A stretch of 64,000 bases of DNA from Candidatus Zambryskibacteria bacterium RIFOXYC1_FULL_39_10 (GCA_001824275.1 MHWW01000002.1:13266-77265); one strand, 5' to 3'. Positions 18,104 through 58,956 are shown, numbered from the stretch's first letter. Notes: generated by a model not told the origin, from the sequence alone. Program-made: numbers and translations.

Positions 18104-18640
18104 TTATTTCTTCTTGAATGGGAAGCCGAGGGTTTTGAAGAATTCCGAAGCGGACTCTTTGTTTTTTAAGTTTGTGACGATGGTGGCGGAAAAGCCAAAC
18201 ACATCTTTGAGGTCTTCATCAGCAGTTTCTGAAAATACAGTATGCTCTTTGATTGCGAGAGTATAATTACCCATCTCGTCCAGTGCGTCAATTGAAATGC
18301 CTCTGAAGTCTTTGGTGCGAGGAAGCGCTATATTCAAAAGTCTGTCGAGGAAGCTCCACATCTTCTCCCCTCTCAAAGTGATTTGCACTCCGACGATATC
18401 GCCCTCTCTAGATTTGAAGGAGGCCACTGATTTTTTGGCGCCTCTTTTGATTGGTTTCTGGCCTGTGATTTTGGCTAATCTATCAGTAACAATATCTATT
18501 TTTTTCTTATCATTAAAAGAGCCGACGCCAGAACTCACAACTACCTTCAAAATTTTTGGCGCCTGCATAATATTTTTCAAGCCCAATTTTTCTTTGAGTT
18601 CTTTAAAAGCTTCTTTGGTTTTTTCTTTAAGTAATTTCAT
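18104..18640 (-). CDS. rplE: 50S ribosomal protein L5.
   Basis: 178 aa, uL5-like from the translation, positioned after rplX. Confidence 0.9.
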   Translation of the reverse strand: MKLLKEKTKEAFKELKEKLGLKNIMQAPKILKVVVSSGVGSFNDKKKIDIVTDRLAKITGQKPIKRGAKKSVASFKSREGDIVGVQITLRGEKMWSFLDRLLNIALPRTKDFRGISIDALDEMGNYTLAIKEHTVFSETADEDLKDVFGFSATIVTNLKNKESASEFFKTLGFPFKKK

Positions 18641-18641
18641 A

Positions 18642-18866
18642 TTATTTGTCTTTTACCTTTTTAACATTTGAAACATGCACTGGTGCCGCTTGCTCTATGA
18701 TTTTGCCTTTCTCATTGCTCTTTTTTGGTCTCTGGTGCAATTTCTTTTTATTTATACCTTCTACCAAAACTGCATCTACTTTTGGAAATGCTTTCAAAAC
18801 GACACCGGTTTTACCCCTGTCTTTGCCTGCGATTATTGATACTTTGTCTCCTTTTTTTATTTTCAT
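18642..18866 (-). CDS. rplX: 50S ribosomal protein L24.
   Basis: Has MKIKKGDKV and a KOW motif. Confidence 0.9.
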
Positions 18867-18893
18867 TTTTTTGTATATTATTCTTTCTTCTTT

Positions 18894-18937
18894 CTCCCCT
18901 CTCCTGCTTCTAGGAGAGGGGTTGGGGGTGAGGTTAA
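18894..18937 (-). repeat. Copy a of a dispersed roughly 45-nt palindromic element (CCCCTCTCCTGC-N-TCTAGGAGAGGGG + TTGGGGGTGAGGTTA). It abuts the rplN stop codon.
   Basis: Nearly identical copies occur at 32718-32763 and 51071-51113. The rplN stop codon TAA is formed by the terminal TTA of the element. Confidence 0.8.
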
Positions 18938-19311
18938 ATCACCTCCGGTGCCAATGTGACGATGGCTTGCATCCCTAATTCAGCGATTTCTCTTGGAATT
19001 GGTCCAAAAATTCTACCAGCCTTGGGCACGATTTCACCCTTTTTTTGTTCCACCACCACCACAGCGTTTTCATCAAAGCGAATATAAGAACCATCTTTTC
19101 GGCGAAGTGGCGCTTTTTGGCGAACCACCAATCCCAAAAGGACTGCTTTCTTTTTTATTTCTTTTCGAGGTTCGGCTTTTTGAACGGAAAAGATGACGAG
19201 CTCACCGATGCGAGCGTATCTCTTTTTGGAACTGCCGAGCACTTTGAAAACTCGCCCTATCTTGGCGCCTGAGTTGTCGGCTACTTTTACGATTGTTTGT
19301 GGCTGAATCAT
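18934..19311 (-). CDS. rplN: 50S ribosomal protein L14.
   Basis: Starts [17 protein letters not shown]. Confidence 0.95.
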
Positions 19312-19315
19312 GTTT

Positions 19316-19606
19316 TTATTTTACAATTATGAAATGCTTATCTTTTGAAATCGGCTTGCACTCTCTAATCATGACTTTATCTCCTATCTTTTTGGTATTG
19401 CCGACATCATGAGCTTTATATTTTTTGCTTACTTTATGATATTTTTTGTATTTAGTGTGCTTAACAAATCTGATAACTGAAACCACACAAGTATCTTTCA
19501 TTTTGTCAGATACCACTACACCACTCAAGACTTTACCACCAATCTTTCCTTCTGATTTTTCTTCTGTATTCTTTTTTAATTCTTCTTTTTTCATTTTAAT
19601 TTTCAA
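19316..19606 (-). CDS. rpsQ: 30S ribosomal protein S17 (with a Lys-rich N-terminal extension).
   Basis: Contains [20 protein letters not shown], the S17 OB fold. Confidence 0.85.
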
Positions 19607-19784
19607 TTTTTATATTCAAAGCCGTCTTTATCCTCGCGATTTCTTTCTTTATATTTTTTTGCTCTTTGACATTTTTGCTCTTGCTACCTGCGCCGCCAAA
19701 TCTAATATCGCGCAAAGACAATCGTTTTTCGTTCAATTCCTTTTCAAGATCTCCTGTATTCTTTTTTGTTTTTTCTTTCTTCAT
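19596..19784 (-). CDS. rpmC: 50S ribosomal protein L29.
   Basis: Starts [30 protein letters not shown] trimmed the start to the ATG at 19784. Confidence 0.8.
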
Positions 19785-19797
19785 ACAGTTACCAATA

Positions 19798-56410: not shown

Positions 56411-56413
56411 AAT

Positions 56414-56731
56414 TTATACAGTTACAGGCAACATGCCGTGTGATACAAAAATTGGAGGCATCCATTGACTTGTTTTAGAAATTTTTTTCCAACCCAAAGA
56501 AGACAAGACCTCATCAACAGTGCCGTGTATTAATATTTCTTCCATAAAAATACTTACCGCCTCAGCAATATTTTTTTCAGCCTCTTTTAAGGTTTTACCA
56601 GCACTAGATAAATCTAAAGCAGGAGTATAAGCAACAAATGATTTGTCTTCTTTAAAATAACTTACTGGAACATTTATTTTCATACGAGCCTTCATAAACT
56701 CTAATATACCAAAATATGCCATAAACGACAA
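56414..56731 (-). CDS. hicB: HicB-family antitoxin (UPF0150-like).
   Basis: 105 aa; YFKEDKSFVAYTPALDLSSAGKTLKEAEKNIAEA is HicB-like. Lies 4 nt upstream of hicA. Confidence 0.6.
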   Translation of the reverse strand: MSFMAYFGILEFMKARMKINVPVSYFKEDKSFVAYTPALDLSSAGKTLKEAEKNIAEAVSIFMEEILIHGTVDEVLSSLGWKKISKTSQWMPPIFVSHGMLPVTV

Positions 56732-56800
56732 TCCCCAATCAAAATTGACGTTTTACCCTCCCCCGCTATAATAAAATCATTAACAAATAACTAAAATATT

Positions 56801-57151
56801 ATGGGAATGGAATCATCTGGCGTAGCGCCAAAACAAGAAGTTGACTTACAGGCCGACTTACAGGCCTTAAAAGACATGTTAGAAAAAAGAGGAATAGACC
56901 CAGAAAAAACCCTCGAAGCAATCAATGATTTCAAGGAAGCACAGCGAGGACTTAGTGATGCGATGGCACACTATAACGAGCAGGCGGCAAGACTAGCAGA
57001 AGCTAATGGCTACCCAATGACAGAAGAACAAGAAGCTAAGTTTCCAGCAATGAACATGAGAGTAGATAATGACCTAAGAACATATTTGAGACTCAAAGGT
57101 TCATCAGAACCAGAAAACAAAAACGAAGATCTGCCCGTCGAACTTTTATAA
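56801..57151 (+). CDS. Hypothetical protein. GC-shifted and the only plus-strand gene in this neighbourhood.
   Basis: 116-aa ORF. Confidence 0.45.
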   Translation: MGMESSGVAPKQEVDLQADLQALKDMLEKRGIDPEKTLEAINDFKEAQRGLSDAMAHYNEQAARLAEANGYPMTEEQEAKFPAMNMRVDNDLRTYLRLKGSSEPENKNEDLPVELL

Positions 57152-57211
57152 ACAATCAAAAAACCACCGAGAGGTGGTTTTTTGATTTATGTGCTTAGCG
57201 TGTGTTTCGCG

Positions 57212-57266
57212 CCTTCCCTCTCCTCAGTCGAGGAGAGGGCCACACGAAGTGAGGGGTGAGGTTTTA
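57212..57266 (-). repeat. Copy e (variant) of the palindromic element, abutting the rpsJ stop codon.
   Basis: Sequence CCTTCCCTCTCCTCAGTCGAGGAGAGGGCCACACGAAGTGAGGGGTGAGGTTTTA. The TTA at 57264-57266 is the rpsJ stop codon. Confidence 0.65.
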
Positions 57267-57641
57267 CATTATCTTCACATCAATATTCACACCTGATGGC
57301 AAAGAGAGATTGGTCAGAGCGTCCATTATTTTAGGAGAAGGGTTTATGATATCAATCACTCTCCTATGCACTCGCATCTCAAACTGCTCACGAGCGTTTT
57401 TGTATACGAATGGAGAGCGGTTGACAGTCCACTTCTTTATTTCAGTGGGCAGTGGTATTGGCCCAACTATTTTGGCATCATATCTCATAGCAGTATCAAT
57501 AATCTGCTTAACCGAAAGATCAAGCACTTTATACTCATAAGCCATCACTCTGATGCGCAACTTAGAAATAGGCTCTTCTTTTTTAGAAGATTTCTTAGGT
57601 TTTGCTACTTTTTTTTCTTTTTTTAATGTACTCTCAGCCAT
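57264..57641 (-). CDS. rpsJ: 30S ribosomal protein S10 (with a Lys-rich N-terminal extension).
   Basis: RIRVMAYEYKVLDLSVKQIIDTAMRYDAKIVGPIPLPT is uS10-like. Confidence 0.9.
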   Translation of the reverse strand: MAESTLKKEKKVAKPKKSSKKEEPISKLRIRVMAYEYKVLDLSVKQIIDTAMRYDAKIVGPIPLPTEIKKWTVNRSPFVYKNAREQFEMRVHRRVIDIINPSPKIMDALTNLSLPSGVNIDVKIM

Positions 57642-57647
57642 TTTATC

Positions 57648-58850
57648 TTACGCTACAATCTTGGTTACCACTCCAGCCCCCACAGTCTTGCCTCCTTCAC
57701 GGATAGCAAATCTCTGCTTTTCTTCTAGGGCTACTGGAGCTACTAATTTAACTTTGAAAGTGACAGTGTCGCCAGGCATAACCATTTCTACTCCTTCATT
57801 TAGGGTAACTTCTCCGGTGACATCAGTAGTTCTGATATAGAACTGGGGTTTGTAACCAGTGAAAAATGGAGTGTGTCGGCCACCTTCTTCTTTCTTTAAG
57901 ATGTAAACTTCGGCTTCAAAGTCAGTGTGAGGAGTGACGGAACCCGGTTTAGCGATAACTTGACCTCGGTGCACGTCTTCCTTCTTGAGACCACGGAGGA
58001 GGATTCCTGCGTTGTCTCCAGCTTGTCCCTCTTGAAGTTGTTTATTAAACATTTCGATACCGGTGATAGTTGTCTTCTGAGCGTCTTTCAAACCAATGAT
58101 TTCCATTTCTTCACCAATCTTTACGATACCTCTTTCAATTTTACCAGTAACTACAGTACCTCTACCTTCAATTGAGAAGATGTCTTCAATCGGCATAAGA
58201 AAAGGTTTATCAAGCTCACGAACAGGAGTTGGAATGTAAGATTCTAATGCAGCAACCAAATCAACTATTTTTGTAGCCCATTCATCTTCCAAACTACCCG
58301 CTTCAAGAGCCTTAAGGCCTGAACCGCGGATAATAGGAGTAGCGGCACCATCGTAATGGTTTTTGGTCAAAAGTTCGCGAACTTCTTCTTCAACCAAGTC
58401 AATCAAATCTTGCTCAGGCACCATATCGCACTTATTAAGGAAAACGATAATTTTAGGCACACCAACTTGGTGAGCCAAAAGGATGTGCTCTCTAGTCTGA
58501 GGCATCACACCGTCAGTAGCGGCTACCACCAAGATAGCACCATCCATCTGAGCGGCACCAGTAATCATGTTTTTAATATAATCGGCGTGTCCCGGAGCAT
58601 CGATGTGAGCATAGTGTCTTGCGGGAGTCCAATACTCGCTGTGGTGCAAGGCAATAGTAATTCCACGAGCTTTTTCCTCAGGGGCATTATCAATATTACC
58701 AACTTCTTCAACTCTAGCACCGAATCCTTCGGCCTTTTTCATGTCGAGGACTTTAAGAATTGCCGCCGTCAAAGTGGTTTTGCCGTGGTCGACGTGACCG
58801 ACGGTACCAACGTTTACGTGAGGCTTGGAACGATCAAAAGCTTCTGCCAT
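57648..58850 (-). CDS. tuf: Elongation factor Tu.
   Basis: [22 protein letters not shown]. Start trimmed to [15 protein letters not shown]. Confidence 0.95.
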
Positions 58851-58956
58851 AATATTTTGATTAAATAATGAATAAATTTTTTGGTGCAATAAAAAAGCAC
58901 CTTTTTTATCAATAGACTATATATTAACAAAATAAAAAAAGAAGTCAAATATTTAG

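Follow-up and report, generated by a model that had tools for sequence, protein, structure and literature searches.

Why should the S10-spc supercluster of ribosomal protein genes lie in pieces in one metagenome-derived genome? The question is raised by a 64,000-nt stretch from Candidatus Zambryskibacteria bacterium RIFOXYC1_FULL_39_10 (GCA_001824275.1, MHWW01000002.1:13266-77265), referred to here as the window and numbered from its first nucleotide, in which tuf-rpsJ, rplC...rplB and rpsS...rplE are separated from one another. The original prediction, made from this sequence, offered either extensive rearrangement or a chimeric assembly, on the premise that most bacteria of the candidate phyla radiation (CPR) keep the cluster contiguous. 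We consider it highly probable that the window carries the genuine, vertically inherited gene order of a Candidatus Zambryskibacteria clade (Paceibacteria/Parcubacteria, CPR), in which S10-spc has been dissolved into modules. As an isolated feature of the window, the arrangement is ordinary biology for its lineage, neither an artefact nor a new system.

Arrangement of the ribosomal protein genes

Gene identities were assigned by comparing concatenated translations of open reading frames (ORFs) with Pfam, and then key ORFs singly with Pfam and NCBIfam. Every gene from S10 to L5 is present, passing Pfam or NCBIfam, and all ribosomal protein genes tested passed their NCBIfam equivalog cut-offs; by tblastn, each is in single copy in the window. 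Read along the minus strand, which holds nearly every gene, the order is tuf-rpsJ, a 1.1-kb island (an orphan gene, a hicB-like gene and hicA), rplC-rplD-rplW-rplB-rplS-tRNA-Leu, 31.5 kb of other genes, rpsS...rplE, and then a ComF-like gene and pilus genes. GC skew is negative over almost the whole window.

The tuf gene (EF-Tu; minus strand, as are all genes of this paragraph; mechanical ORF 57648-58889 with Pfam GTP_EFTU, D2 and D3; the database product has 400 aa and a start near 58850) is followed by rpsJ (S10; 57264-57641; Pfam, and an NCBIfam equivalog with 133 bits against a cut-off of 85). Beyond a gap of 1,165 bp come rplC (L3; 55481-56098; NCBIfam L3_bact, 235 bits), rplD (L4; 54781-55440; Pfam Ribosomal_L4), rplW (L23; 54453-54740; Pfam Ribosomal_L23) and rplB (L2; 53600-54448; Pfam L2_N and L2_C). 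Only 5 bp after rplB lies rplS (L19; 53130-53594; Pfam, and NCBIfam equivalog TIGR01024 with 99.4 bits against a cut-off of 90.7), followed by tRNA-Leu(GAG) (52944-53026; ARAGORN). The predicted 31 kb or so of unrelated genes before rpsS was measured as 31,521 bp between the stop of rplS and the start of rpsS; with rplS included, the gap between L2 and S19 is 31,991 bp. The second block, rpsS-rplV-rpsC-rplP-rpmC-rpsQ-rplN-rplX-rplE (18104-21608; Pfam, with NCBIfam for S19 and L5), begins with rpsS (21264-21608; NCBIfam S19) and ends with rplE (L5; 18104-18640; Pfam, NCBIfam). Canonical order is kept inside rplC-D-W-B and inside rpsS...rplE, and contiguity is broken at S10|L3 and at L2|S19.

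Some lineages, for example cyanobacteria and plastids, have rpsJ in the str operon (fusA-tuf-rpsJ) and away from rplC. The window resembles them in the linkage of rpsJ to tuf, with a putative terminator and promoter intervening before rplC; unlike them, it has no rpsL-rpsG-fusA in front of tuf (upstream interval 58957-62524), so that the usual str-S10 linkage is broken here as well, and the L2|S19 and L5|S14 breaks come in addition. The usual home of rplS is the trmD operon (rpsP-rimM-trmD-rplS). The window encodes the same protein, passing the equivalog cut-off for L19, but its gene is placed between rplB and tRNA-Leu, and Pfam scans detected no trmD, rimM or rpsP in the window. Compared with the canonical S10-spc(-alpha) supercluster of E. 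coli and B. subtilis, the window is alike in its genes and in the internal order of its blocks, and differs in being cut at S10|L3, L2|S19 and L5|S14, in the 31.5 kb between rplB/rplS and rpsS, in the absence of rpsN...secY over at least 80 kb, in the rplS appended behind rplB and in having no L30. The loss of L30 has been described for all candidate-phyla bacteria (bioRxiv 10.1101/2022.01.07.475337).

The cluster ends at rplE without rpsN, rpsH or rplF, as the original prediction had stated. S14, S8, L6, L18, S5, L15 and SecY gave no tblastn match in the window, and S14 through SecY were also absent from contig positions 12452-91917, that is, up to 10 kb past either window end on the 95.9-kb contig (about 80 kb seen). 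A metagenome scan with an L6 alignment yielded no locus assignable to rpsN...secY of this clade among the matches listed; one stand-alone S14 block (L121) has pilus genes 26-34% identical to those of the window. The search for the missing segments, to which the original prediction had drawn attention, thus located neither rpsN-secY in the window or within 10 kb of its ends nor rplA in the window. The prediction that the cluster runs up to comFC and a pilus locus held for the pilus genes. The neighbouring gene (17271-18101, plus strand) is a ComF-like phosphoribosyltransferase gene at best, since it did not reach the family cut-off (TIGR00201, 84.2 bits against 233.55; Pfam Pribosyltran, 21.2 against 26.3).

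The claim that rplK-nusG-secE is present without rplA was borne out. The genes secE (33378-33554; Pfam SecE, 59 bits), nusG (32829-33374; Pfam NusG and KOW) and rplK (L11; 32258-32677; NCBIfam L11_bact, 178 bits) lie in series on the minus strand. No Ribosomal_L1 match was obtained among the window ORFs with Pfam; the next ORF after rplK (31538-32077, 179 aa) matched no family in Pfam or NCBIfam and is not L1, and one relative (L097) likewise lacks L1 after rplK. Some Parcubacteria, as a subgroup, are known to have lost L1 (Brown et al. 2015, cited and confirmed by bioRxiv 10.1101/2022.01.07.475337), and an Ala/Lys-rich S19 tail has been described for Parcubacteria (bioRxiv 10.1101/2022.01.07.475337). 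The window agrees with this subgroup, without a difference, in its secE-nusG-rplK lacking a following rplA and in its S19 tail, here on one contig only, and rplK without rplA matches the L1 loss already described.

Junctions and gene order in other assemblies and species

All four junctions were found again in many independent assemblies. The stretch from nusA through tuf-rpsJ, the island, rplC...rplB-rplS and the sequence downstream is present in at least nine places, including NCBI, JGI 3300009031 and several ENA assemblies; the NCBI copy is contig MHWX01000016.1 of GCA_001825445.1 (Rifle groundwater, Candidatus Zambryskibacteria RIFOXYC1_FULL_39_10). The stretch thyA...argS-hypothetical gene-rpsS...rplE-ComF-like-pilM occurs in at least three places (JGI 3300025088 and two ENA assemblies), with about twenty similar ones; over both stretches, dozens of further places were collapsed as similar. 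The assemblies differ in both sample and assembler (megahit, SPAdes, the original Rifle scaffolds, JGI).

Relatives were identified as L19 homologues 75-85% identical on long contigs, whose surroundings were fetched, and as S19 homologues on the same long contigs; those sampled for rplS were Rifle MHVC01000010, a Hainich aquifer contig, two contigs of GCA_034680565.1 and JGI 3300009702. The order DUF5663-tuf-rpsJ-(variable spacer)-rplC-D-W-B-rplS was found in all five, with tRNA-Leu(GAG) downstream of rplS in three, and argS-(variable)-rpsS...rplE-(ComF-like)-pilM...pilB in both of the relatives checked for it (L096 and L097). On the 189-kb contig JAXOUH010010729.1, L19 and S19 are 23.8 kb apart, the flanking and intervening order is as in the window, and a series of histidine kinase, response regulator, DedA, FolD, SIMPL, secE, nusG and rplK lies between them; ERZ27249683 carries secE/nusG/rplK...argS-rpsS...rplE-ComF-like-pilM. 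These relatives are diverged from the window, L2 being 79-87% identical, L4 about 72% and an 881-aa neighbour of tuf about 35%. We conclude that the rplB-rplS adjacency, with rpsS elsewhere behind argS, is a trait of a clade within Zambryskibacteria. Among the 20 Patescibacteria loci listed in a tblastn survey of GTDB species representatives, none has rplS after rplB, so that the adjacency is limited to a narrower clade. The extensive rearrangement of the original prediction is real, but it is not peculiar to this genome; the order common to related species marks it as an old, vertically inherited state. The same order in related genomes, these being drafts, was the outcome that the prediction itself had named as pointing to a lineage trait.

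Species do differ in the contents of the spacers. The rpsJ|rplC spacer holds the hicBA island in this species only; in one relative a 149-aa gene lies there, and in some others the spacer is empty. Between argS (22545-24347, minus strand; Pfam), which is kept upstream of the rpsS block in L096 and L097, and rpsS lies a 228-aa hypothetical gene (21739-22425, minus strand) that matched no family in Pfam scans; the corresponding spacer contains a gene for a 2835-aa protein and a response regulator gene in one relative and is empty in another. The stretch after tRNA-Leu also varies between species. The hicBA/orphan island and the 228-aa gene are the sole species-specific additions.

The island lies exactly between the terminator-like hairpins after rpsJ and the conserved promoter-like element of rplC. 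The original prediction of a 1-kb insert with hicB, hicA and an orphan gene stood as to the island, the orphan and hicA (56180-56410, minus strand), which reached 30.1 bits with Pfam HicA_toxin PF07927 (cut-off 27) when scanned alone and 26.9 bits when scanned inside the concatenate. The presumed hicB fared less well: the candidate antitoxin gene (56414-56695, minus strand, in its 93-aa version), 3 bp upstream of hicA, is a weak HicB-like match (Pfam HicB_lk_antitox PF15919, 16.8 bits, E 0.008, cut-off 27) and had no NCBIfam match. The pair is like a HicAB type II toxin-antitoxin system in that a 76-aa HicA-domain protein is encoded right behind a small acidic partner with a promoter-like site upstream, but unlike it in the weak match of the partner to HicB, in the antitoxin-like gene coming first and in its location in a ribosomal protein spacer. 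The orphan gene (56801-57151, plus strand, 116 aa) converges on rpsJ, has no family match and is absent from the relatives L093-L095, L100 and L101; a promoter-like site for it, TTGACG-N16-TATAAT, was found by consensus match at 56745-56772 (plus strand).

Opened joints in the class Paceibacteria

An L2 scan of GTDB species representatives, with ribosomal protein genes mapped by tblastn, gave at least 20 Patescibacteria loci and at least 60 loci from other phyla; the counts that follow are among the matches listed. The L2|S19 gap exceeded 500 bp in 15 of the 19 informative Patescibacteria loci, reaching 9.7 kb and more than 10 kb, so that the premise of a contiguous cluster in most of the CPR is wrong for this class. 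The same gap in other bacteria (n = 60) had a median length of 15 bp and was at most 171 bp long, none exceeding 300 bp. Among metagenome loci, it was longer than 400 bp in five of eight. The L5|S14 gap was longer than 400 bp in half of the GTDB Patescibacteria loci (7 of 14) and in 7 of 11 metagenome loci, compared with 0 of 38 controls. At S10|L3, gaps above 400 bp were seen in 3 of 17 GTDB Patescibacteria loci, and gaps above 300 bp in 2 of 35 other bacteria. Joints other than these three stay tight, and L2|S19 itself measures just 0 and 11 bp in the two Patescibacteria loci that are most distant. The nearest species representative among the matches listed, a Zambryskiibacteriota genome with 74% identity in L2, has the three blocks still close, with inserts of 0.8 kb and 2.9 kb and no rplS, which places the window at the far end of a class-wide trend.

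What fills the gaps varies by genome: unrelated small ORFs, a restriction-modification system, an IS200-like transposase, giant surface proteins, rplJ-rplL with a Cas1-like gene and an IS1595 transposase, or pyrF, pyrE and pyrD with diacylglycerol kinase. The rplJ-rplL example is a 9.7-kb L2|S19 gap (L022, 10840-20539), which also contains tRNA-Trp; here the joint has taken up further translation genes. We considered whether a diverged rplS or one conserved gene is hidden in the L2|S19 gaps of 0.5-1.1 kb present in relatives, and rejected this, the ORFs there being unrelated to each other. Pilin-like genes are found between L5 and S14 in L014 (15075-15332) and directly upstream of a stand-alone S14 block in L105 (96-2784), and in the window the pilus locus (5437-17383) borders on rplE; the L5|S14 joint may have been occupied early on by pilus genes. 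A literature search of incomplete coverage found no description, for candidate-phyla bacteria, of S10/spc fragmentation, of L2|S19 or L5|S14 opening, or of rplB-rplS linkage.

Putative transcription units and competing explanations

Promoter and terminator calls were made from consensus matches and from RNA folds with z-scores, with Markov-simulated sequences as controls; the elements below are on the minus strand. A promoter-like site precedes tuf (TTGACT-N16-TAATAT with TG, 58921-58948; consensus match), and the same motif, with a covarying hairpin in the 5' untranslated region, is present in relatives. Two hairpins follow rpsJ (57149-57248; fold of -51 kcal/mol, z = -8.5), the second of which is an A6-stem-T6 putative bidirectional terminator, and four relatives have an equivalent AAAAAACCGCC...GGCGGTTTTTT hairpin behind rpsJ. 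Alignment of five clade members revealed a promoter-like element before rplC (TTGCAA-N17-TATTTT preceded by TG, 56099-56153; clade form TTGCA...TGnTAnTnT) and an invariant leader, GCCGAATGGCGTTTTTTAT, before the rplC ATG. The unit rplC...tRNA-Leu would be closed by a putative terminator, a 17-bp A/T-flanked hairpin identified by folding (52905-52943). The predicted terminator and promoter of rpsS are both present as sequence: the 228-aa gene is followed by a putative intrinsic terminator (21701-21728; an 11-bp stem with nine GC pairs and a T-run, z = -5.8), and a TTGACA-N16-TAGTAT site with TG (21648-21675) stands 39 nt before the rpsS start codon. This site outscores 99% of Markov-simulated sequences (p = 0.008), and its hexamers are identical in the relative L097. 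Similar TTGACW-N16/17-(TG)TAGTAT sites precede S19 in most Paceibacteria, even where the gap is only about 140 bp; across relatives, the summed score of the S19-upstream sites was 158, compared with 129 +/- 4 in the Markov controls.

These motifs suggest how the cluster could have come apart. Four transcription units are predicted, each of them bounded by a terminator and equipped with a separate sigma-70-type promoter and a short hairpin leader: tuf-rpsJ; rplC-rplD-rplW-rplB, which would have recruited rplS and tRNA-Leu at its 3' end; rpsS...rplE, now behind argS; and rpsN...secY, elsewhere. If every module starts and stops transcription by signals of its own, co-transcription would no longer be needed and the spacers could accept DNA without harm to expression, so that the same joints (L2|S19, L5|S14 and sometimes S10|L3) would be struck repeatedly. 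On this model, the L2|S19 gap of the clade grew to 24-32 kb of conserved housekeeping genes, and two spacers in this species gained small genes, the hicBA island with the orphan and the 228-aa gene.

In a chimeric assembly, the breakpoints would be joins between different organisms or loci. In favour of this, the window stems from a short-read metagenome bin, and ribosomal protein clusters differ so little between strains that false joins can easily arise. Because all the junctions recur in many independent assemblies (at least nine and at least three places, from different samples and assemblers), this part of the original prediction is refuted; the order shared with diverged relatives from other sites, the uniform gene strand and the nearly constant sign of the GC skew also speak against it, and we give it a negligible probability. 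A recent rearrangement peculiar to this genome, in which a mobile element, for example one integrating at tRNA-Leu or with the hicBA island, broke a contiguous operon, is very unlikely. It would account for the absence of the island, the orphan and the 228-aa gene from relatives, a tRNA gene does lie at the rplS boundary, and in other Paceibacteria this joint harbours insertion sequence (IS) elements. However, the large breaks (rplB-rplS...24-32 kb...rpsS and rplE|ComF-like-pilM) are common to species in which L4 is about 72% and the 881-aa neighbour about 35% identical, the genes in between are housekeeping genes that are syntenic in relatives, and Pfam scans detected no integrase or transposase family among the window ORFs.

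An explanation that concerns transcription rather than gene order is that the cluster is split physically but has fewer transcription units, with read-through of small inserts (from rpsJ via the island into rplC) and with promoter-like sites that are incidental. The hicB-like gene, hicA and rplC are on the same strand without a hairpin between hicA and rplC, a relative with rplC close behind rpsJ exists (L100, below), and consensus promoter matches are common by chance. Against this stand the strong putative bidirectional terminator after rpsJ, here and in four relatives, and the promoter-like elements before rplC (with its leader) and before rpsS, which are kept in position and sequence; moreover, 31.5 kb to rpsS cannot be bridged. 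We regard the read-through explanation as improbable, though less so than a recent rearrangement. It is also less likely that the rplC operon is driven by a hicBA promoter, since the conserved promoter-like element and leader between hicA and rplC are also present in island-free relatives.

Several observations weigh against the reading that we prefer, a vertically inherited order of separately transcribed modules. The relatives are draft metagenome-assembled genomes and not closed, and the gap frequencies are samples and not a census. In L100, rplC starts 4 nt after rpsJ, so that not every clade member has tuf-rpsJ split from rplC. The consensus scan returned 18 promoter-like sites where 9.7 were expected by chance, many of them thus being chance matches, and it is from their sequences that we infer that TTGACA-N16-TAGTAT and the other motifs act as promoters and terminators. 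No terminator follows rplE, which abuts a convergent gene; the stops of rplE and the ComF-like gene are 2 bp apart (18101-18104), leaving no room for one, and rpsS...rplE transcripts should run antisense into the ComF-like gene. Finally, rpsN...secY would be a fourth module, intact or not, somewhere outside the roughly 80 kb of contig covered.

For Paceibacteria as a whole, a bolder interpretation can be put forward tentatively, and we think it rather less likely to hold than not. S10-spc would consist of promoter-bearing cassettes, with the L2|S19 and L5|S14 boundaries serving as long-lived permissive landing sites for IS elements and for restriction-modification, toxin-antitoxin and translation genes, and rplS may have been captured behind rplB for expression at ribosomal protein level. 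If so, ribosomal protein dosage would be balanced by promoter matching and not by co-transcription and translational coupling. S10-spc is a standard example of gene order kept for billions of years, and a class that opens it at fixed joints offers a natural experiment on why the genes are kept together. Phylogenies and genome-quality checks of candidate phyla often rely on 16 syntenic ribosomal proteins on one scaffold; in this clade, these markers occupy at least two loci and extend across more than 35 kb, and short contigs will give partial marker sets.

Some further features of these elements were noted. The 21-nt leader GCCnnnnGGCGTTTTTTATATG (56096-56117, minus strand), directly before the rplC start, is invariant in the window and in L093, L094, L095 and L101 and unique in the window; its GCC/GGC stem is fixed and its loop variable, and it could be a candidate regulatory or protein-binding hairpin. 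A search of Rfam at gathering cut-offs returned no ribosomal protein leader family, only a tRNA. Just after the conserved rplC ATG, L094 (about 5400-5480) and L101 (about 4315-4394) carry an insert of about 80 nt with the inverted repeat CCCGTTAGAAG...CTTCTAACGGG and a second ATG behind it; the insert has the look of a miniature palindromic element that landed at the start codon. Perfect GC-rich hairpins lacking T-runs follow rpsJ (57200-57263, minus strand; CCCTCTCCTC...GAGGAGAGGG) and rplS (53040-53129, minus strand; CCCCTCACCTT...AAGGTGAGGGG); a near-identical copy of the former follows rpsJ in L101, and both may belong to a family of intergenic palindromes.

The 31.5 kb between rplS and rpsS begin with a cobalamin adenosyltransferase-like gene, csoR-copA and membrane protein genes, and continue with genes for a histidine kinase and response regulator, a DedA-like protein, folD, a SIMPL protein gene and secE-nusG-rplK; genes for DHFR, a cytidylyltransferase, dCMP deaminase and two HIT proteins, thyA and glyA come next, and the last are genes for a PaaX-like protein, an RNase T-like exonuclease and dUTPase, argS and the 228-aa hypothetical gene. 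Beyond the ComF-like gene, the type IV pilus locus encodes PilM, PilO, PilB, PilT and PilC (Pfam). Upstream of tuf (58957-62524, minus strand) are a pilin-like gene, a DUF5663 gene and the gene for the 881-aa protein, which has no family match; the DUF5663 gene and the large protein hold the same place in relatives, and the pilin-like gene is not consistently there. The tRNA-Leu at 52944-53026 was not among the Rfam gathering-run matches. A tRNA at 50881-50953 (minus strand; Rfam, 50.4 bits) was not called by ARAGORN, overlaps the 5' part of the mechanical ORF 50582-50959 and aligns with tRNA-His(GTG) of relatives, with the anticodon loop CTGTGAA. The C-terminal tail of L19 (53130-53594, minus strand) is acidic and about 40 aa long (EVVTIEEVEAVEEKIVENAEKVAEAEEVKE), and S19 (21264-21608, minus strand) ends in the Ala/Lys-rich C-terminal tail reported for Parcubacteria.

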